Under the pieces are notes generated by a model that saw only the letters and a program-made list of their open reading frames with translations, made no database searches and was not told the DNA's origin. From contig JAJTFA010000003.1 of assembly GCA_021299635.1 (NCBI GenBank), forward strand, positions 145,795 to 209,794: DNA of 64,000 nt. Direction: 5' to 3'. The DNA comes from Sphingobacteriales bacterium (GTDB lineage: Bacteria > Bacteroidota > Bacteroidia > UKL13-3). Position 1 is the stretch's first letter, and the number at the start of each line of letters is the position of its first letter. Of the stretch, positions 7,989 through 17,941 are shown piece after piece. The translations under genes and the position numbers were made by a program.

Positions 7989-8023
7989 GGTTATTAAGTT
8001 TGTTTTTACGGGTTGGTCGCTAA

Positions 8024-8140
8024 AATTATAAGATTGAAAAATTGAAAGATTAGAAGATTGAAAGATTTCATTCTCTCACATCCCATGTCTTTCCTCTTTC
8101 AGCGCAGCGGTCTTTCGTCTCGTTTCTCGTTTCTCGCCTC
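8024..8140 (-). repeat. Intergenic composite repeat, copy B (reverse complement of copy A)
   Basis: The plus strand reads agattgaaaaattgaaagattagaagattgaaagattt then tctctcacatcccatgtctttcctctttcagcgcagcggtctttcgtctcgtttctcgtttctcgcctc. Reverse-complemented, it aligns with 2631-2745. Confidence 0.7.
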
Positions 8141-8399
8141 TTTCATATCATTCAAACCTCCCAATGCCTTATGTGTTACATCTACTAGTAAAAATTTTAC
8201 TCTTTTCCCAGCTGAAAATCAAATTGTATTTCAAAGTACTGAAAACCACATTTATTAATAATTCTCCACAAGCACTGTTGCAGTAAATATAGGATGTGAA
8301 AAACGCAATGGCAATAAAATTAAGGCTTTCAGCCATTGTGCATGAAAAGGTTTTAATTGGACACCACATGGTTTTTAATTTTGCATCTTGTTTTAAATC

Positions 8400-9716
8400 A
8401 TGAATACTTCACAAGAATTTATATCCATACAAAGGCAGGTTTTAAGCACCTTAATTCAGCACCCGCATTTATTTGGGCGGTATGCAGAAAAAATACGTTT
8501 AGTGTATTTTACTGAGCCTGCTTTTAAGCAATTGCTCTTGGTCATGCGTTCTTTAAATCAAGCCTATGCAACATTTGATCTTCACTTGCTGAGAAATGAA
8601 TTGAAGAAAGAATCGGAAGAAGCAAATCTTGTCTTGGTTGATGAAATGGCTAATGAGATTGCGGAGCAAGCAGATTTAGAAATTAAGTTGAATGCTTTAA
8701 AGGAGTATACCACTCGAAAGATGTTTTTTGAGTTGGGCGAAACACTTTTTAATAAAAGCATGGATTCTGATATACCTGTTGCTGATTTGCAAACGACCTT
8801 ATCAAATTGTATGCAAGTATTATCTGGTATGCAATCCGTTGGCAATACCGAAAGCTTGAAAGAAATTTTGAATCGAATTAAAATCTCTTCTGAGTCAGAT
8901 GAGTCTTATACTTGGTTCGACTCCAATCTGCAGGCGCATTTGGGAAGCATTGAGTCGGGAGAATTAATTGTAATTGGTGCTCGACCAGGTATTGGCAAAA
9001 CGGCATTCTTGCATACACAACTGCTTCATTTGGCATCTCATCATCAAGCACCAGTCGGTTATATCAATATTATAGAAAACGAACGTGCGCTGATTGCAAA
9101 GTTGCTTAAGGCTTCAGGTGAAGATTTAACAAAAGCGGAAAACGAGAATTTATCTTTAAACGGCAAAACCTGGCCTATATATCTATGCAGTAATTTAGGA
9201 GGTACCCAATTAAAAGATATCAAAAATGCGGCAAACTTTCTTAAGTATAAATATGATATAAAAGTGTTGGCAATTGACTGTTTTCAGCAAATTACCTATC
9301 AGTCTAAAATGAATTATCGTGATTATGAATTAGGCATGGTTGTCCAGGAATTGAAAAAAATAGCCAAAGAACTTGATATAGCCATCTTACTAACCTCACA
9401 ACTCAACAGATCAGCTGAAAGAAGAGGTTATGTGGCGATTCCAATGCTTTGCGACCTTAAAGAAACCGGTTATTTGGAGGAGGTAGCAGATAAGGTTTTG
9501 CTGCTTCACCGATATGCCTATTATGGTATAAATGTATATGAAGATGGTACGCCTACCGGTAATGACAGCAATGTTTTGATAGCTAAAAATAAGTATGGAA
9601 AATCGGGTAAGGTGTTATTATCATTTGATAGTAAGTTGGGGAAGTTTTTGCCTAAAGCACAACCACTGCCTATGGTGTTTGAGTTTCCGGCAAACAGGCT
9701 AACCGATTTGGAATAA
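8400..9716 (+). CDS. Divergent DnaB-family (RecA-fold, hexameric-type) helicase, candidate retron partner/effector
   Basis: 438 aa with an ATG start. It has a DnaB-N-like helical N-terminus. Motifs are Walker A GARPGIGKT (nt 8976-9002), Walker B-like VLAIDCFQQI, a DnaB-like LTSQLNRSAERRG segment and CDLKETGYLEEVADKVLLLHR (compare DnaB SDLRESGxIEQDAD). It seems shorter than the replicative DnaB of this phylum as I recall it, and I do not see the N-terminal signature I associate with replicative DnaB. A TAATTTTG motif (8376-8383) lies 17 nt upstream. The stop is 18 nt before the retron ncRNA. Confidence 0.75.
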   Translation: MNTSQEFISIQRQVLSTLIQHPHLFGRYAEKIRLVYFTEPAFKQLLLVMRSLNQAYATFDLHLLRNELKKESEEANLVLVDEMANEIAEQADLEIKLNALKEYTTRKMFFELGETLFNKSMDSDIPVADLQTTLSNCMQVLSGMQSVGNTESLKEILNRIKISSESDESYTWFDSNLQAHLGSIESGELIVIGARPGIGKTAFLHTQLLHLASHHQAPVGYINIIENERALIAKLLKASGEDLTKAENENLSLNGKTWPIYLCSNLGGTQLKDIKNAANFLKYKYDIKVLAIDCFQQITYQSKMNYRDYELGMVVQELKKIAKELDIAILLTSQLNRSAERRGYVAIPMLCDLKETGYLEEVADKVLLLHRYAYYGINVYEDGTPTGNDSNVLIAKNKYGKSGKVLLSFDSKLGKFLPKAQPLPMVFEFPANRLTDLE

Positions 9717-9734
9717 ACATATTCGGTGCACCAT

Positions 9735-9880
9735 TACACAAATACAATGAAGACATGCTAAAGTCTTGTAACTGTTGTTTCTGCAGTTGATTTAAAATAG
9801 CAGGTGGCAGCCAACGAACAAGTTTCACTTCGTTCACTTGTTCGTTGCTTCAGGGGGTTAAATAGATTGTATTTGTTGTA
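9735..9880 (+). ncRNA. Retron msr/msd non-coding RNA (template and primer for msDNA)
   Basis: a1 9735-9748 pairs with a2 9866-9880 (11 perfect bp acaaatacaat/attgtatttgt, plus 3 bp after a 1-nt bulge). G9749 directly follows a1, the position of the priming guanosine. Two short msr-like hairpins lie at 9750-9767 and 9770-9788. A perfect 12-bp msd-like stem caacgaacaagt(9812-9823)/acttgttcgttg(9836-9847) has a 12-nt loop. The RNA ends 2 nt before the RT ORF. Confidence 0.8.
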
Positions 9881-9882
9881 AT

Positions 9883-10917
9883 GTGTGCCCGATTTTTAAC
9901 GATGAATTTTTGGTGATGAGATCACTTGAAGAACTTTTAAAAATATTAGCAATTTCTTCGGAGCTTTTGCAACAATTACTTGCAGCACCGGAGTATACGA
10001 TATACCATATTTCCAAAAAAAGCGGAGGCACACGCACCATTCAGGCGCCTCAGGGATTGTTGCGTCAAACACAGGTTCTGCTGGCAAAGTACCTTCAGAC
10101 AGTTTATTCCCGCCATCACTTGCCATGCATACATGGATTTGTTCCATCAGCCGGTTTGCTAAAATATGGAGTTCTGTCAAATGCAGTACCTCATTTAAAT
10201 AAGCCCTTTGTATTAAATATGGATATTAAAAACTTTTTTGAAAGTATAACGGCAAAAAAAGTGAAGAAAAGCTTGTGTGAATTTCCATATTATTTTAATG
10301 AAGAAGTGGCAACAGCTATTGCATTGTTGTGCACGTATCAAAAACAATTGCCTACAGGCGCTCCTACTTCTCCCGTATTATCAAACATGGTATTTTATAT
10401 TCCGGATGTGGCTTTGTTGCAATGGATAACAGATGTGAACGAGACAAAGCAAATTGATGAAACAGGCATTAGTTATACCAGATATGCAGATGATTTAACT
10501 TTTTCAGGATCGGCAAATCTGGTGCTTTCACTGCAGGCTCGCATCATATCATTTTTTGCTACTGAGGGATTTGAAATCAATGCAAAAAAAACAAGGGCAC
10601 AAACACCTCATGGACCTCAATGGGTGACGGGAATAAAGGTGAATGAAAGATTAAACATTAGCAGGTATTATATCAGAAACCTGAGAGCTGTCATACATCA
10701 GATGCGGGTTCATGCTGCAGAAGCTGTTGTGTGCAGGTATTTAAAATTACCGGCTACAACGCAAATAAATACTGCGCATGTAAAAAAGATGTTGAGCAGT
10801 GTACAATCAAAAATAGCATGGGTAGGAATGGTAAGAGGCAAAGCAGACCCGATATATCTGCGTTTACAAACTCAATTTAATGTAGCAAGGGAGGTGATGC
10901 TGGTAAAAGAATCTTGA
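9883..10917 (+). CDS. Retron-type reverse transcriptase
   Basis: 344 aa. RT motifs in order: KKSGGTRTIQAP, HGFVPSAG, NAVPHLNKPFVLNMDIKNFFESI, LPTGAPTSPVLSN, YADD (nt 10483-10494), GFEINAKKTR, and the retron-characteristic VTGIKVN. There is no maturase, endonuclease or other C-terminal domain. The start is GTG 9883, or alternatively ATG 9916. Confidence 0.85.
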   Translation: MCPIFNDEFLVMRSLEELLKILAISSELLQQLLAAPEYTIYHISKKSGGTRTIQAPQGLLRQTQVLLAKYLQTVYSRHHLPCIHGFVPSAGLLKYGVLSNAVPHLNKPFVLNMDIKNFFESITAKKVKKSLCEFPYYFNEEVATAIALLCTYQKQLPTGAPTSPVLSNMVFYIPDVALLQWITDVNETKQIDETGISYTRYADDLTFSGSANLVLSLQARIISFFATEGFEINAKKTRAQTPHGPQWVTGIKVNERLNISRYYIRNLRAVIHQMRVHAAEAVVCRYLKLPATTQINTAHVKKMLSSVQSKIAWVGMVRGKADPIYLRLQTQFNVAREVMLVKES

Positions 10918-10927
10918 AGGGGAATGC

Positions 10928-11200
10928 GGGAATTGGGTATTAGGTTTTGGGGTTTAGGTTTATGCAAGTTAATATTCAACAATGAGTATGCAGCTGTTAG
11001 CTGTTGGCCTTTGGCTGTTTGAGATTTTTTAACGGAGTAGCTAAAACTTGGGAATTGGGTGTTAGGTTTTGGGGTTTAGGTTTATGCAAGTTAATATTCA
11101 ACAATGAGTATGCAGCTTTTGGCTGTTGGCCTCTGGCTGTTTGAAGTTTTTTAACGTAGTGTCTAATGCTTGGGATTTGGGTATTAGGTGTTGATGATTT
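10928..11200 (+). repeat. 122-bp tandem direct repeat, about 2.2 copies
   Basis: gggaattgggtrttaggttttggggtttaggtttatgcaagttaatattcaacaatgagtatgcagc... starts at 10928 and again at 11050, nearly identical. A third truncated, diverged copy starts near 11172. No ORF. Confidence 0.8.
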
Positions 11201-11220
11201 GCGATTAAATTTAAATATCT

Positions 11221-11345
11221 AAATTACTCAATCTCCTAATTTTCTAATCTTTTAATCTTCTAATAACAAACCTTCTAATCTTTCAATCTTCTATTAACAA
11301 ACCTTCTAACCTTCTAATCTTTCAATCTTTTAATCTTCCAATCTT
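11221..11345 (+). repeat. Short-period tctaat/caatct repeat block, copy C of the intergenic repeat family
   Basis: ttctaatcttttaatcttctaataacaaaccttctaatctttcaatcttctattaacaaaccttctaaccttctaatctttcaatctt... has the same orientation as copy A and is inverted relative to copy B. It abuts the pyrF stop codon. Confidence 0.7.
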
Positions 11346-12152
11346 CTAATCTCCTACATACTGCGCCATTTCATCTGCCATTTTTTTAGCTTCGGCTGCA
11401 GCAGCTTCGGCAAAATCTTTACCTGATGAGGCATAGATGATGCTGCGTGAGGCATTGATAAGCAATCCGCAATCCTGATTCATGCCATATTTTACCACAT
11501 CGGCCAGACTGCCTCCTTGCGCACCCACACCGGGTACCAATAGAAAATGATCGGGGATGAGTTTACGAATATGAGCCAATTCCTCTGCTTTGGTTGCACC
11601 AACCACAAACATCAGGTTGCCTGTATTACCAATTTGTGTGGTAGTTGTAATCACATGCTCATATAACTTTCGGTTGCCAATAAGTTGCTGTTCATAGTCG
11701 GCACTGCCCGGATTGGATGTAAGCGCAAGTACAATGCCCCATCTGTTGTCGTAGGCAAAGAATGGTGCAATAGAATCTTTACCCATGTATGGTGCCAGTG
11801 TTACGGAATGAAATGGCAATGTTTCAAAGAATGCGCGTGCATACATATTGCTGGTATTGCCAATATCTCCTCTTTTGGCATCTGCTATGGTAAAGATATT
11901 TTCCGGTATGTGAAACAGGGTGCGCTCCATGCTTTCCCAACCCTTAACGCCATTGGCCTCATAAAATGCAGTGTTGATTTTATAACTAACACAGTAATCT
12001 TTGGTGGCATCAATAATGGCCTTATTAAATTCAAATACAGGATCATCCAGGTGTAATAAGTGTGACGGTATTTTTTTAATATCGGTATCTAGGCCTACAC
12101 ATAAAAAACTTTTTTTTAGTTTAATCTGCTTTATGAGTTCTGTTCTGTTCAT
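11346..12152 (-). CDS. pyrF: Orotidine 5'-phosphate decarboxylase (type 2)
   Basis: FLCVGLDTD, ADAKRGDIGNT and LLVPGVGAQGG motifs. The start is set at ATG 12150-12152 (MNRTELIKQI...). The longer ORF would overlap the upstream gene. Confidence 0.85.
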   Translation of the reverse strand: MNRTELIKQIKLKKSFLCVGLDTDIKKIPSHLLHLDDPVFEFNKAIIDATKDYCVSYKINTAFYEANGVKGWESMERTLFHIPENIFTIADAKRGDIGNTSNMYARAFFETLPFHSVTLAPYMGKDSIAPFFAYDNRWGIVLALTSNPGSADYEQQLIGNRKLYEHVITTTTQIGNTGNLMFVVGATKAEELAHIRKLIPDHFLLVPGVGAQGGSLADVVKYGMNQDCGLLINASRSIIYASSGKDFAEAAAAEAKKMADEMAQYVGD

Positions 12153-12156
12153 GTTT

Positions 12157-12822
12157 TTAAAATATAAAGCTGAATTCAAAAGCCATGTGCTGCAGGTTTT
12201 TGCCCTGATTTGCCGGTCCAACCGCAGGTAACAGGCCTTTATTAGCATCCAGTAATCCGTATTTTACAGCCAATTGAAATCCCACAAAAGGCGTATGAAA
12301 TTGTGCTCCCGCCATCACCATCAAATCATGCTTGTTTAGTGCAGGTGATAGAGACTCCTGAACCTGTGAATTTGTTTTAAACATAATGGAATTAAGCAGG
12401 TTTGCGTATTGAGCACCCACAAATACATTGCTTGTGTTTTTTTCATTGAGTCCGTACATCAGCAATACCGGTATATCAACAAAGTAAGTTCGTATGGTTC
12501 CGTATTCATCTACCTTATTACCAAACTTGCCTCCTCTGATGCTGATATTGGTCTCGGTTTGCAATGCCCAATGTGTGTTAAACCGATAGCGGAAATAGCC
12601 ACCACCAACCAAACCAAAAATAGGATACGGATTGATTGCTTCTTTGCCACCTATCATAAACAAGCCACAGCCTAATTTTACACCTAATTTTATTTTTTCG
12701 TTGATAGGAGGGATGACCAAAACACCCGGATCATCTTCTTCATTAGCCAGGCTGTCGGCTTCCTGGGCAAAGGCAGTCTGCAACAGCAATAAACAGGCGA
12801 TTAAAGCTAACAGGTATTTCAT
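12157..12822 (-). CDS. Outer-membrane beta-barrel (porin-family) protein
   Basis: Signal peptide MKYLLALIACLLLLQTAFA|QE, alternating beta-strand pattern, C-terminal ...FEFSFIF. ATG at 12820-12822. Confidence 0.65.
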   Translation of the reverse strand: MKYLLALIACLLLLQTAFAQEADSLANEEDDPGVLVIPPINEKIKLGVKLGCGLFMIGGKEAINPYPIFGLVGGGYFRYRFNTHWALQTETNISIRGGKFGNKVDEYGTIRTYFVDIPVLLMYGLNEKNTSNVFVGAQYANLLNSIMFKTNSQVQESLSPALNKHDLMVMAGAQFHTPFVGFQLAVKYGLLDANKGLLPAVGPANQGKNLQHMAFEFSFIF

Positions 12823-12869
12823 TATAAGCAAAACTAACTAAAAAAAAGAAGTGTCAACTTAATGTTTTA

Positions 12870-13868
12870 TTAAAAACCTGGAAACAATTCATCCGCATCC
12901 TCCTCTTCTCCGTTTTTACTTGTTTTAAATGCATTGCGGATATTGTTAAATGCAGGGAGCCAAATAATACCAGCCTGAATCAATATGGTTGGATGGGTAT
13001 CGGCACGATAATAAGTTACTCCATCCCTGTTTCCATCTTCGGTAAAAGTAATTCGTTGTTTAGTTATTAGGTAAATACCCGCCTGAAGCCGAAGGTTATT
13101 TTTTGCCTTGTAAATGCCTGCCAATCCTGTTTGTAAAGAGCGTAACCTGTGCACAGCAATGCTTGCATCAGTGCCAGCAAAATAATTTCTGTTCTCAAAA
13201 CGGTTGAAGCCACCATTGGGTCGCATTAACAATACAAGGCTCCATTGCTTGCTTAATGGTTGCCTGTAGGAAAGTTGCATAGGCAATAATACTGATAAGC
13301 GTGAACCACAGGTAAACTGATAACGTGCACCTAACAGGGGCAAGGCAAGTCCTTCGCCAAACTGAAACGTATAGGTGATGCCTGCTTGTGTAAGTAATTT
13401 GGGCGACCATCTATAGGAGTATATAAAAACAGAACTAAAACGCATGGCAGGGTTTGAAATGGTAAATTCATCTTCGTTCCATTGTGGTCTGATTTGTGCC
13501 AGCAGCAGGTGTTTGTTGCCAAAACCTGCATACCCTCCAACTCCTGCACCTGCACTGATGAGCAAACGCGATTGCTGCACAAGGCTGATATCTGCCTTGC
13601 TCAGTTGCAGCATTGGGTTTAAAAAGAATCCTAAGTTGGTGGCATTCTCTGCCCCGGTTACTTTAGACCACACAGGTATTAATGCGCCTACTTGCAAGGT
13701 TTGGTAAGCAAATGTTTGTTCTGAGCTGTCTTTTGCAGCAGCTATGCTGCGGTTGCCATATTCCAGTTGAATGCGGGTAAAGTTAAAACGGCCGGTTACC
13801 TTGCTTTGCGCGGTTACAAAAGCCAGCAACACCGTTTGAAAAAGGATAATTGAGAAAAATTTAAGCAT
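12870..13868 (-). CDS. Hypothetical outer-membrane beta-barrel-like protein
   Basis: Signal peptide ...LLAFVTA|QS, amphipathic strand pattern rich in aromatic/Gly residues, terminal Phe (..ELFPGF). I do not recognise a family. Confidence 0.5.
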   Translation of the reverse strand: MLKFFSIILFQTVLLAFVTAQSKVTGRFNFTRIQLEYGNRSIAAAKDSSEQTFAYQTLQVGALIPVWSKVTGAENATNLGFFLNPMLQLSKADISLVQQSRLLISAGAGVGGYAGFGNKHLLLAQIRPQWNEDEFTISNPAMRFSSVFIYSYRWSPKLLTQAGITYTFQFGEGLALPLLGARYQFTCGSRLSVLLPMQLSYRQPLSKQWSLVLLMRPNGGFNRFENRNYFAGTDASIAVHRLRSLQTGLAGIYKAKNNLRLQAGIYLITKQRITFTEDGNRDGVTYYRADTHPTILIQAGIIWLPAFNNIRNAFKTSKNGEEEDADELFPGF

Positions 13869-13942
13869 TTATTTGATGTGGCAGTGCGAATATTCAAATA
13901 TTTATTTATTAAATTCGGATTTAATTAACAACCACGCTTACT

Positions 13943-16900
13943 ATGAAAAATAACTTACTTATCTTAGCTATTCTTACTATATGCATGCAGCATGCGGGCG
14001 CACAAGTGCATAGCACTCCTGTGCATATAATTAATAACCTGCAGCACCAGCGCGTATGGAATGCACAAACACCAGCCGGTGCTTTTGGTAAAACCAGTAA
14101 TTGCGGGCCCGATACGGTAAACTACACCTTTAACAAAACTACGCAGTTTAACGCCATTGCATTAAACAATACAACCAGTGGAAATACCTTTTATCAGTGG
14201 TATCCTGCACCACAATCCTTAACCATTAATGGGTTTGATTTTTTTGCCTGGCAATCGGCTAGCACCAATGCTGTGGTGCCTGTTACCTGCAGGATTTACA
14301 GTGCAAGTATTATCGACTCTTTGCCCGCATATTCCGGAACACCTCCAACAACTAATCCACCGCTGGCTACGGTCATTGTGAATGTTGATTCAACTTTTGG
14401 TGGCGGGTTGTTATCTAATATGCGCAGAAGAGCAGTATTTAGCGCACCTGTAACAGTAACCGGTCCGTATATCATCAGCATTGAAAATAGCAGTGCAACA
14501 AACGTTTCTGTTATCACAAATAGCTGGACAGCAGGAAACGGTGCAAGTGAGTGGCTAAGTTCAGTTAGAATTGGAACTAATATTATCAGAAGTTATAATG
14601 TGAATGTAGGTGGTCCGGTTTTCAATGCCGATTTTATTTTCTGCCCCTACACCAGCTATTCACTCACGTCTGACTTTACGGTATCACCGGTATGTAATCA
14701 GGGAGGAAACCTTATGACCTATACCAATACTTCATCTCCAATAAATTTTAGCAGATTCTATAGCTTAAGGGCATTTCAAAATTTACCTCAATTCATGTTC
14801 ACCTGGGATTATGGTGATTCATCGGGAACCTTTTTTACAGTAAACGGTTCTCGCACGTATAATTATCGTGTGCCATATACAGTAAGTTTAAAAGATTCAA
14901 TTATTGGCTGGACAAGAGGCTGTGTTGATACGAGAACCAGGCTAATCAATCCGGCTCCGTCAACGCCAAATGCAAACAATAATGGCCCTTTATGTCAGGG
15001 CGCAACTTTACAACTTACAGCAGACTCAATTCCAGGCGCAACATATTACTGGACCGGTCCTAATAATTTTACATCCACGCTTCGCAATCCAGGTATTGCA
15101 GGGGTAACTTCTTTGCAGGTGGGTACATATAATGTAAGAGCCATCTCCGGTCAGTGCTCATCTATGGTGGCCAGTACCAATTTTAATATCATAGCTACAC
15201 CTAATGTGCAAAGCAACTCTCCACTATGTGTTGGCCAAACACTTAATCTGGCTGCTACTGCAATAACCGGTGCCGTGTATGCATGGAGTGGCCCCAATGG
15301 TTTTAGCTCGTCTCTCTCAAATCCTACCAAAGCAAATATGCAACAATCCGATACAGGCACTTACAGCGTTACCATGACGGTTCCAGGTTGTGGCGTAATC
15401 GGTCCATATACGGCTTATGTTGCGGTTAATCCGGTGCCACCAACCCCAACAGCAAGCAATAACGGGCCCTTATGTGCAGGTGATAATCTAAATTTAACGG
15501 CAAGTAGTTTTGCCGGAGGCAGCTATGCATGGACAGGACCTAATGGTTTCAGCTCTACACAGCAAAATCCAAGCAGACCAAATGTAACGACTCTTATGGC
15601 AGGATCATATTCGGTTACCTTAACGGCCAACGGATGTTCATCCCCTTCGGTATCAACCACAGTTAGTATTAATAATATTCCATCTCCGCCAACTGCAGGT
15701 AGCAACGGACCTTTATGCGCAGGACAGTCGTTGAGCTTAACGGCCACTTCCATTCCCGGAGCAACGTATACCTGGAGCGGCCCCAATAATTTCAGTTCCA
15801 CTTCTCAAAATCCTACCCGCACCAATGTGGGAACAATTGATGGGGGTGTATACAGCGTTTTTGCAACAGTAAATGGTTGTCCATCCACGACAGCAACCAT
15901 CAGTGTTAATATTACCAACAATACGCCAACTCCGGTGGCGGGTAGCAATGCTCCGCTTTGCCCCGGTCAGAATTTACAATTAACGGCTTCCAATATTACA
16001 GGAGCTACATATAGCTGGACTGGCCCAAATAGTTTCACATCAAACCTGCAAAATCCGGTTATTAATAATGTAACTGCTGGTCAGGCGGGGTTATATAGTG
16101 TTACGGCCACTACATCAGGTTGCGGAACATCTAGCCCTGGAACGGTAAATATTGCAGTTAATACATTACCGGCAGCACCAACAGCTTCTAACAATGGTAC
16201 ATTGTGTGATGGACAAAATATTAATCTTACCGCTTCAAATGTTACAGGAGGAACTTACAGCTGGACTGGCCCGAACGGTTTTACATCAACTGCCCAGAAT
16301 CCTGTTATAACCAATGCGAGTGCTTTAAAAGCGGGTAATTATTCTGTATCGGTAACAGTTGCAGGTTGCGGCACATCACCAGTTGGCAATACCAATGTTA
16401 TTGTTAGAAGAAATCCTGCCCAGCCTGCAATTACCGCCAATAATCAGGTTTGCTCAGGCGATACCTTACGCTTTTCTGCTTTAAGTAACGCTGTCGGTCC
16501 CAATGCAACATATGCATGGAGTGGTCCTGGTGGATATTCTTCCAGCAATAGAACCAATGAAATTGCAAATGTTTCAGCAGCTGCCAATGCAGGTACGTAT
16601 AGTGTTATTGCATCTGATTCTGGCTGTAGCTCACCACCGGCTTCGGTAACGGTTTCTGTAAAAGCCCTGCCTGCAACGCCTGTTGCCAGCAACGGTGGTA
16701 ATGTGTGTGAGGGAGCCAATATCAATTTATTTTCAACAACCATTGCAGGTGCAACCTATAAATGGATTGGTCCGAATGGATTTAGTTCAGGTGCCGAAGA
16801 TCCAATCATCATTGGCGTTACACCTGCTGCATCCGGTTCTTACACCGTTCAATCAATTGTAAATGGTTGTGCATCTGCTCCTGCAAGCACATCCGTTTTG

Positions 16901-17941
16901 GTTAATCCCAAACCTGCATCACCAACTGCAGGGAATAACGGGCCAAAGTGCACCGGTGATAATCTTTCGCTTACTGCCTCTGCAGTAGCCGGTGCAAGCT
17001 ATAGTTGGAGTGGCCCCGGAGGTTATTCATCAAGTCAGCAAAATCCTGTATTAACAAATATCACTACTGCCATGGCCGGCACATACAGTGTAGTAGCAAT
17101 TGTAAGTGGTTGCGTTTCCGGTGCATCAACAACAGATATTGTGGTAGGTACACCGCTGCCTGCTCCAACCCTTAGTAATGATAAAGGCTCACAATTAATT
17201 TGTGCCGGAGACAGCATACAGTTTTTTGCAACATTTGTAAGCGGTGCAACTTATGAATGGACTGGCCCTGCAGGTTTTCAGTCCGCACTTAATAATCCTA
17301 AAATTACCAATTTAACTCCGGCTAATTCAGGAACATACAATGCAGTAGTGAACAAAAACGGATGTGCTTCTGCACAGGGCAGTATTGCCATTAACGTAAA
17401 CAGCAAACCAAACACCAGTGCAATCTCCGGTCCGGATACGGTAAGAAATTTTGAAACACAAACAACCTTCTCCGTAACACCAACAACAGGTTCCATTTAC
17501 CAATGGAGTGTTACAGGAGGCGGAGTTATTTTCAGCGGCCAAAATACCAGTCAGATAAAAGTAAATTGGGGTGCAGTAAACAACGCTCAGGTGAAGGTTA
17601 CAGAAACAAATATTGGTGGCTGTAAGGGAACAGAAAAAGTTCAGAACGTGCGGGTGAAATCAACTGTGGGTGTGGCTGAGTTGAAGAAAACCACACAGCC
17701 TAAAATTTATCCTAACCCTGCAAATAATGATTTGTATGTGGAGATAGAGGCAAAACAAAAAACAACATTAAGCATTAACATCCTCAATCTGGTTGGACAA
17801 GTGGTAGAAAACCTGGATGTAGTTTCGGTTCAGGGATTAAATAAATTACATCTCGATACGCAAAAACTGAAGGCAGGAATTTATTTCGTGCAGATGGTGT
17901 TGGGAGATGAAACCTTTACGCAAAAAATAACCATTCAGTAA
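13943..17941 (+). CDS. Large secreted cell-surface protein: PKD-like domain, ten Ig-like repeats, T9SS C-terminal sorting domain
   Basis: 1332 aa. Signal peptide ...QHAGA|QV. PKD-like FTWDYGDSSG...YTVSL. Ten ~80-aa repeats of NNGPLCxGxxLxLTAxxxxGATYxWxGPNGFSSxxQNPxIxNxxxxxxGxYSVxxxxxGC (nt ~14950-17400). The C-terminal KIYPNPANNDLYVEIE...GIYFVQMVLGDETFTQKITIQ is a type A T9SS sorting domain. Confidence 0.8.
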   Translation: MKNNLLILAILTICMQHAGAQVHSTPVHIINNLQHQRVWNAQTPAGAFGKTSNCGPDTVNYTFNKTTQFNAIALNNTTSGNTFYQWYPAPQSLTINGFDFFAWQSASTNAVVPVTCRIYSASIIDSLPAYSGTPPTTNPPLATVIVNVDSTFGGGLLSNMRRRAVFSAPVTVTGPYIISIENSSATNVSVITNSWTAGNGASEWLSSVRIGTNIIRSYNVNVGGPVFNADFIFCPYTSYSLTSDFTVSPVCNQGGNLMTYTNTSSPINFSRFYSLRAFQNLPQFMFTWDYGDSSGTFFTVNGSRTYNYRVPYTVSLKDSIIGWTRGCVDTRTRLINPAPSTPNANNNGPLCQGATLQLTADSIPGATYYWTGPNNFTSTLRNPGIAGVTSLQVGTYNVRAISGQCSSMVASTNFNIIATPNVQSNSPLCVGQTLNLAATAITGAVYAWSGPNGFSSSLSNPTKANMQQSDTGTYSVTMTVPGCGVIGPYTAYVAVNPVPPTPTASNNGPLCAGDNLNLTASSFAGGSYAWTGPNGFSSTQQNPSRPNVTTLMAGSYSVTLTANGCSSPSVSTTVSINNIPSPPTAGSNGPLCAGQSLSLTATSIPGATYTWSGPNNFSSTSQNPTRTNVGTIDGGVYSVFATVNGCPSTTATISVNITNNTPTPVAGSNAPLCPGQNLQLTASNITGATYSWTGPNSFTSNLQNPVINNVTAGQAGLYSVTATTSGCGTSSPGTVNIAVNTLPAAPTASNNGTLCDGQNINLTASNVTGGTYSWTGPNGFTSTAQNPVITNASALKAGNYSVSVTVAGCGTSPVGNTNVIVRRNPAQPAITANNQVCSGDTLRFSALSNAVGPNATYAWSGPGGYSSSNRTNEIANVSAAANAGTYSVIASDSGCSSPPASVTVSVKALPATPVASNGGNVCEGANINLFSTTIAGATYKWIGPNGFSSGAEDPIIIGVTPAASGSYTVQSIVNGCASAPASTSVLVNPKPASPTAGNNGPKCTGDNLSLTASAVAGASYSWSGPGGYSSSQQNPVLTNITTAMAGTYSVVAIVSGCVSGASTTDIVVGTPLPAPTLSNDKGSQLICAGDSIQFFATFVSGATYEWTGPAGFQSALNNPKITNLTPANSGTYNAVVNKNGCASAQGSIAINVNSKPNTSAISGPDTVRNFETQTTFSVTPTTGSIYQWSVTGGGVIFSGQNTSQIKVNWGAVNNAQVKVTETNIGGCKGTEKVQNVRVKSTVGVAELKKTTQPKIYPNPANNDLYVEIEAKQKTTLSINILNLVGQVVENLDVVSVQGLNKLHLDTQKLKAGIYFVQMVLGDETFTQKITIQ

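Follow-up and report, generated by a model that had tools for sequence, protein, structure and literature searches.

The 64,000-nucleotide stretch of DNA analysed here, referred to throughout as the window, carries an element of about 170 nt lodged between a DnaB-like gene and a reverse transcriptase (RT) gene, raising the question of whether this element is the template RNA of a retron and what the flanking genes would contribute to such a system. The reading developed below, which we consider very probable, is that a three-part retron is present, in which plus-strand positions 9722–9893 encode the msr-msd ncRNA, flanked on one side by the gene for a DnaB-like ATPase and on the other by a stand-alone RT belonging to the type XI / XII / I-C clade. 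The predicted parts are arranged as follows.

8400–9716, plus strand: DnaB-like gene (438 aa), the conserved partner of the RT and presumed accessory or effector
9722–9893, plus strand: predicted msr-msd ncRNA, between the DnaB-like gene and the RT gene
9722–9748, plus strand: a1, the 5′ arm of the closing helix, with outer blocks TCGG, GCAC and CATTACA and inner block CAAATACAAT (RNAfold)
9749, plus strand: junction G 3′ of a1, candidate 2′-OH branching (priming) guanosine
9750–9767, plus strand: msr hairpin 1, AAGAC / 8-nt loop / GTCTT
9769–9789, plus strand: msr hairpin 2, TAACTGT / TGTTTCT / GCAGTTG
9790–9811, plus strand: linker and predicted reverse-transcription stop zone, marked by conserved alignment columns
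9812–9847, plus strand: msd hairpin, a perfect 12-bp stem with a 12-nt loop (repeat search)
9848–9865, plus strand: 3′ single-stranded part of the msd, with a G-run, ending at G9865, the predicted first templated base
9866–9892, plus strand: a2, the 3′ arm of the closing helix (RNAfold, repeat search and pair changes in homologues)
9893–9897, plus strand: T-run after a2, present at the same place in essentially all close and distant homologues
9913–10917, plus strand: stand-alone retron-type RT, whose longest ORF starts at GTG 9883

The downstream ORF encodes a retron-clade RT. Retron RT profiles of PADLOC match it in the range from 1e-82 to 1e-40, led by RT-Protease_XI (1.2e-82, 276 bits), RT-TIR_XII (4.6e-76) and RT-Toprim_I-C (2.2e-71). 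The RT-Protease_XI match spans positions 5–321 of 510, corresponding to the RT part only, and Pfam recognizes RVT_1 alone in an ORF of at most 344 aa, with no fused protease. The window and 17 homologues, 18 sequences in all, carry the retron motifs NAxxH (NAVPH), VTG (QWVTG) and YADD without variation, and the closest solved relatives in a PDB search are the retron RTs Ec86 (5e-28), followed by Ec67, Kva2, Ec83 and Ec78. In the alignment, homologous RTs begin at the position of GTG 9913 or ATG 9916, which makes one of these codons the most likely start of the window RT, 21–24 nt after the closing helix and not within a2. The earlier note had let a2 end 2 nt before the RT ORF, a spacing that rests on GTG 9883, a codon lying inside a2, and that is given up with it.

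A convergent pyrF gene lies downstream of the RT and a HAD hydrolase gene occupies the other flank, as judged from Pfam and gene layout, and because the module is flanked by these two genes its assignment to a prophage is rejected. The interval between the RT stop codon and pyrF is rich in repeats, comprising a 122-nt direct repeat in 2.2 tandem copies that are 91% identical (10928–11193), of which the relative L166 carries extra copies, and an array of about 18 units with an 8-nt period (AATCTTCT-like; 11207–11358). A 1332-aa ORF at 13943–17941 consists of many tandem repeats of about 80 aa and ends at its C-terminus in what we take, by eye, to resemble a type IX secretion sorting signal, which would fit a Bacteroidota host.

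Homologues of the RT fall into tiers of amino acid identity, with one at 94%, a clade at 52–58%, one at 43% and hundreds at 35–41%. Loci of the close clade were fetched singly by exact protein look-up because the protein patterns YTRYADDL and QWVTG[IV]KV proved too generic, retrieving retron RTs of all kinds and zero close-clade members in metagenome_contigs. In every close-clade locus with enough upstream DNA, a DnaB_C gene of 434–443 aa lies directly upstream on the same strand, and the gap of about 170–220 nt between the two genes holds the RNA. About 18 loci at 34–41% RT identity also have a DnaB_C gene directly upstream, with DnaB_C identities of 28–35%, extending the linkage from 94% RT identity down to about 34% across differing genomic neighbourhoods. 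The neighbours of close-clade loci vary among WYL genes, a second RT, a secreted protease and pyrF; the DnaB-like gene, the RNA and the RT therefore constitute a conserved unit, and gene order shows these three predicted components to travel as one. A WYL/WCX gene adjoins the module in some relatives (L168/L169 1–1763; L167 1–714), and in L168 a second, divergently oriented RT gene also adjoins it. Such neighbours suggest that these copies lie in a defence island, a setting that the window lacks.

Folding of 9715–9895 with RNAfold yields −60.8 kcal/mol (z = −5.4), a stability reached by 0/200 dinucleotide shuffles, and the predicted structure consists of a closing helix, hairpins at 9750–9767 and 9769–9789, and the 12-bp hairpin, thereby reproducing every element listed in the earlier note. 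A repeat search of 9650–9950 returns two inverted repeats only, 9812–9823/9836–9847 and 9738–9748/9866–9876. In the second of these, ACAAATACAAT (9738–9748) pairs with ATTGTATTTGT (9866–9876) over 11 nt at 100%, so that the a1/a2 repeat described from the sequence is exact. The arms of the closing helix lie where they had been placed, but the helix does not end at 14 bp as had been proposed; it runs to about 25 bp, pairing 9723–9748 with 9866–9892 through three 1-nt bulges and the successive blocks TCGG/CCGA, GCAC/GTGC and CATTACA/TGTAATG, then CAAATACAAT/ATTGTATTTG. A covariance-model scan, proposed at the same time, was carried out with Rfam 15 over 8000–12000 at E <= 10 and returned no match to curated RNA families within 9700–9900, which is weak negative evidence because retron ncRNAs are very diverse.

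Comparison across relatives carries the structural model further. Each of 14 distinct close-clade RNAs folds separately into the same plan. RNAalifold applied to a plain MAFFT alignment, made without reference to a structure, recovers both msr hairpins, the outer stem and the msd stem (9/11 compensated), while the inner a1/a2 helix is missed because MAFFT mis-registers a2 through indels. For this reason a block-wise structural alignment of the 14 sequences was built by hand with N padding, which MAFFT returned unchanged. Standard pairs fill 94.4% of its 660 cells, versus 32–44% when partner columns are slid, and double-sided changes affect 27/51 pairs, a level reached by 0/500 shuffles, with these covariation counts to be read as upper bounds because the structure guided the alignment and the divergent L173 supplies many of the changes. 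Specifically, double-sided changes are found in 10/17 pairs of the outer a1/a2 helix and 8/10 of the inner (together 18/27), and in 9/12 pairs of the msd stem. The comparison of orthologues that the earlier note had recommended thus finds both a1/a2 and the msd stem retaining their pairing through many compensatory changes, and the combined data show all five predicted helices to be kept by compensatory evolution.

The same architecture extends to more distant relatives. A DNA scan with a 19-mer taken from hairpin 2 gave 29 genome matches, of which 7 are real ncRNAs, adding Bacteroidota MAG loci, and the others coding-sequence coincidences; the single match on a viral contig is unrelated. A search with nhmmer using the close-clade RNA profile found nothing in the loci at 34–41% identity, and the RNAs of distant loci were recognized by architecture and short motifs only. 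These distant DnaB_C–RT loci present the same plan in other sequences, with outer a1 GAGCCGTTG and a2 CAACGGCTC, the motif '...TAT-G-(A/T)GTC', a hairpin 2 of the form GGTTG-TGTTCCT-GCAACC and a long hairpin in the msd; a2 is preceded by 'AAG|ATAA' and followed by a T-run. On this comparative evidence the element of about 170 nt is a structured RNA, conserved in evolution, that has every part expected of a retron template RNA, and the msr/msd interpretation of 9722–9893 is supported as far as sequence analysis goes.

Two short msr hairpins are enclosed by the closing helix. Their cores, AAGAC 9750–9754 with GTCTT 9763–9767 and AACTG 9770–9774 with CAGTT 9784–9788, had both been picked out by eye, are present at these positions and covary in distant loci. 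Hairpin 1 is invariant or changes only to G.U pairs in the close clade (14-sequence structural alignment), and across 24 sequences it is 100% paired with 5/6 pairs compensated. Hairpin 2 is the most conserved element of the RNA and the likely RT recognition site: its 19-mer AACTGTTGTTTCTGCAGTT, found once in the whole window, is identical in 13/14 close-clade sequences, the exception being an A-to-G change that gives a G.U pair. In distant loci the stem of hairpin 2 covaries (GGTTG/CAACC, GATTG/CAATC, GGCTG/CAGCC), and both msr hairpins taken over 24 distinct sequences have 100% of cells paired and 8/11 pairs compensated. Moreover, hairpin 2 holds two invariant U.G pairs; G.U pairs form on the plus strand only and the minus-strand fold loses hairpin 2, which places the RNA on the strand of the RT gene.

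The G at 9749, singled out earlier for its position directly after a1, is both present and conserved. The base directly following a1 is G in 22/24 distinct family sequences, including all 15 distant loci, in which it always follows the last a1 pair directly, and A in two lineages. A branching G immediately 3′ of a1 is the rule for retrons (PMC7736814, PMC10849725), and the position of G9749 matches it. On the opposite side of the enclosed region, the base just 5′ of a2 is G in 22/24, the same sequences that carry the junction G, and within the close clade the only exceptions are the two lineages whose junction base is not G either. Both conserved Gs are as the census rules require of the branching nucleotide and of the position where templating begins (PMC10849725), from which we infer that priming would occur at the 2′-OH of G9749.

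The two exceptional lineages, L168 (= L169/L170/L187) and L199 (= L206), carry A after a1 and A just 5′ of a2, in the following RNAs.

L168, 3267–3480: A/A-junction RNA
L199, 3421–3634: A/A-junction RNA

Their RT and DnaB-like ORFs are intact and occur in several samples, with the RT on 8 contigs, which lends some weight to the alternative that the element is a retron ncRNA primed elsewhere than at G9749, for example from G9752 in hairpin 1, or tolerant of a non-G primer. We regard this alternative as unlikely, since the junction G is retained in 22/24 sequences, among them every distant locus, and occupies the canonical position, and the two exceptions may represent one inherited event or decaying copies. 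The A/A lineages may be inactive, may branch from a different nucleotide, or may prime from a base other than G. They lower confidence in the exact branch site and not in the RNA itself, so that the assignment of the priming site is less secure than the structure.

Reverse transcription from G9749 would use the msd as its template. The msd arms CAACGAACAAGT (9812–9823) and ACTTGTTCGTTG (9836–9847) pair over 12 nt at 100%, and the perfect 12-bp stem with its 12-nt loop, as read from the sequence beforehand, is borne out by the repeat search and by covariation; as DNA, the hairpin also folds well (z = −5.2). The alternative pairing of AACGAA 9813–9818 with TTCGTT 9829–9834, which had likewise been pointed out, exists in the window, goes back to a duplication of part of the 3′ arm and is confined to window-like and L171-like sequences. 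Other members, close and distant, share a fairly conserved …CGCTGCGCT… / GCTCCGC in the loop corresponding to window 9824–9835, homologues with the conserved loop motif including L007, L089, L093, L095 and L097. The window group has replaced this motif by a partial duplicate of the 3′ stem arm.

On the two sides of the hairpin, short motifs are maintained. The GGGG and ATAG motifs of the msd 3′ part are conserved in the close clade, and the linker contains an AT-rich motif, (G/T)TTTAAAA(A)T(A/G)G at about 9789–9800, conserved in close-clade alignments. In the retron census termination usually precedes an AT-rich region (PMC10849725), a rule that the linker motif fits. The resulting msDNA would measure about 65 nt and keep the 12-bp hairpin, in agreement with the previous estimate of 60–70 nt.

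Beyond a2, the T-run may be where transcripts end, or it may dampen read-through ahead of the RT gene. Its recurrence after a2 in nearly all homologues, together with the placement of the element between two co-oriented genes, is what speaks for a mainly cis-regulatory leader or attenuator, in which the stem and U-tract would control read-through from the DnaB-like gene to the RT gene and no msDNA would be made. We consider this quite improbable: a terminator would need neither a plan of five helices nor a conserved junction G nor msr hairpins of invariant sequence, an intrinsic terminator does not have the shape of a 117-nt multi-branch loop closed by a 25-bp helix, and the RT carries all the retron hallmarks. 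A terminator scan also found nothing there, the sigma-70 promoter and terminator scan giving counts equal to those of shuffles with a model that does not cover Bacteroidota promoters. The attenuator and retron RNA roles are, in addition, not mutually exclusive.

The weakest reading, a functionless chance occurrence of inverted repeats in an AT-rich intergenic region, has next to no probability left, for although perfect repeats of at least 11 nt (1.35%) and at least 12 nt (0.25%) arise in 2000 shuffles of the 301-nt region and perfect 11–12-nt repeats occur in about 3% of real 301-nt segments here, so that the nested 11-nt and 12-nt repeats of the element are alone unusual and not decisive, it is refuted by the comparative sequence data, namely conservation and compensatory changes in >20 independent loci with the element always between DnaB_C and RT.

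The third component, the product of 8400–9716, is predicted to be a full-length, diverged DnaB-family ATPase. Pfam identifies DnaB_C (1.6e-38) together with a weak match to the DnaB N-terminal domain, and residues 9–416 align to Aquifex DnaB (4nmn). The protein resembles replicative DnaB in combining an N-terminal domain with a RecA-like C-terminal domain, and it keeps Walker A (GARPGIGKT), Walker B (LAIDCFQQ) and SQLNR intact. It is unlike replicative DnaB in its low equivalog score, its DLKETG finger, its constant linkage to an RT and its varied neighbourhoods. Specifically, the arginine finger DLRESG near residue 360 is changed to DLKETG, with Lys replacing the canonical Arg, and the motif reads DLKET(G/S) or DLKDT(S/G) in all ten aligned DnaB-like proteins. 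The NCBIfam model for replicative DnaB (TIGR00665) scores 155.8 bits, far under its cut-off of 385.25, and the identity of a housekeeping helicase is rejected because of this score. The DnaB-like protein displays no obvious toxic domain, which, like the Lys in its finger motif, speaks against the three-part retron reading.

The N-terminal 260 aa of the DnaB-like proteins are hypervariable between near-identical RT loci, and the gene of the window is itself a chimera, as seen in a comparison that took in L171, L001 and L166. Residues 1 to about 395 share 94–100% identity with L171, the RTs of the two loci sharing only 58%; beyond them the match is to L001, at 100% / 99.7% for the final ~45 aa, the ncRNA and the RT, placing the breakpoint near 9580–9600. 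The DnaB-like protein of L001 is only 57.7% identical overall, falling to 22–50% over the N-terminal 260 aa. At the nucleotide level, the window and L001/L201 (CANGVA010000003.1, a deposited MAG contig distinct from the window), whose RTs are near-identical to that of the window, share 93–95% identity over 9171–15049, and nothing upstream of 9171 aligns; since the RT protein differs from theirs by one residue, the nucleotide differences in the RT gene are almost all synonymous. L171 and L207 occupy the chromosomal site of the window, L171 with both flanks (HAD hydrolase and pyrF) and L207 on the pyrF side only. The chimeric gene and the shared chromosomal site together imply that the helicase body and the RT-RNA module have been swapped in place.

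Placed among known systems, the RNA resembles canonical msr-msd RNAs such as Ec86 (type II-A) in its a1/a2 arms, the G directly after a1, the order of msr before msd hairpins, the RT downstream on the same strand, a G as first templated base and an AT-rich stretch at the expected stop, and the Ec86 RT is also the best solved relative (5e-28). It differs from canonical retron RNAs in its lack of sequence or covariance-model similarity to curated families, its closing helix of about 25 bp and the T-run after a2, and in place of a nucleoside deoxyribosyltransferase-like effector it has a DnaB-like ATPase. The classification of Mestre et al. (2020, PMC7736814) comprises 13 retron types, and the word 'Helicase' is absent from that paper. 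In it, type XI denotes an RT-protease fusion (trypsin-like) of RT clade 8 without a recognizable ncRNA as of 2020 (Mestre et al. 2020, PMC7736814); some type XI ncRNAs were validated experimentally in the 2024 census (PMC10849725), in whose supplements the hairpin-2 motif was not found. The RT domain of type XI gives the best PADLOC match here, but the present locus has a separate DnaB-like gene and no protease domain, and with RVT_1 as the only Pfam domain of the ORF, membership in canonical type XI, which is defined by the fusion, is rejected.

The closest counterpart is TXI_noncan_h, a set of 29 candidate loci from Bacillota and Bacteroidota in which a protease-less type XI-like RT is combined with DnaB_C (Toro 2026, bioRxiv 10.64898/2026.05.14.725207). 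The RNA of that set is a prediction, flanked by a1/a2 and located 22–104 bp upstream of the RT, in a purely computational study (bioRxiv 10.64898/2026.05.14.725207). The present locus combines a protease-less type XI-like RT with an adjacent DnaB_C gene at offset −1, and shares with TXI_noncan_h the stand-alone RT that best matches type XI, the adjacent DnaB_C, the conserved a1/a2 ncRNA just upstream of the RT and an occurrence that includes Bacteroidota. By these sequence features it joins the DnaB-associated retron group already proposed computationally. Several properties set the two apart: DnaB_C is mostly downstream in TXI_noncan_h (14/20 loci) and always upstream in the present family; the hosts of the former are largely gut Bacteroidota and Bacillota, those of the latter aquatic or environmental Bacteroidota; and a 'compact double stem-loop' of 23 bp contrasts with a closing helix plus three hairpins amounting to 51 pairs. 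The supplement of the same study lists five RT + DnaB_C loci from aquatic or wastewater Bacteroidota as low-confidence 'type I-C3', unanalysed (bioRxiv 10.64898/2026.05.14.725207), and because similar loci were binned in this way, the present clade may lie outside the named TXI_noncan_h lineage.

A working model follows the established retron mechanism. The RT would bind the invariant msr hairpins, prime from the 2′-OH of G9749 and copy the template from G9865 leftwards through the 12-bp hairpin, stopping at the AT-rich linker near 9800 and thereby generating a branched msDNA of about 65 nt with a 12-bp DNA hairpin. More speculatively, the RT-msDNA complex might restrain the DnaB-like ATPase until phage infection disturbs the complex, which would cast the DnaB-like protein, again speculatively, as an effector or sensor under RT-msDNA control. 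Taken jointly, a broader proposal holds that the DnaB-like homologue represents a new class of retron effector or sensor that is not a nuclease, NADase or membrane protein and is restrained by or loaded onto msDNA, that the system diversifies by swapping the helicase body against a module of C-terminal tail, ncRNA and RT at a fixed chromosomal site, and that some junction-A lineages may prime from a non-guanosine. This combination is offered tentatively, being in our judgement possible although somewhat doubtful as a whole.

For the family, the finding provides a base-resolved, covariation-supported msr/msd model for a type XI-like clade (RT clade 8) whose RNAs were long unknown, and because the model commits to a particular branch G, a first templated position and a region for the stop, it is directly checkable. 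The chimeric helicase with its mapped breakpoint and the two lineages without the junction G constitute natural variants for experiments, and the compact RT of about 335 aa, together with the simple 12-bp msd hairpin, forms a candidate scaffold for retron editing. Finally, the linkage of a DnaB-like ATPase, an ncRNA and an RT in environmental Bacteroidota strengthens the computational proposal of helicase-associated retrons.
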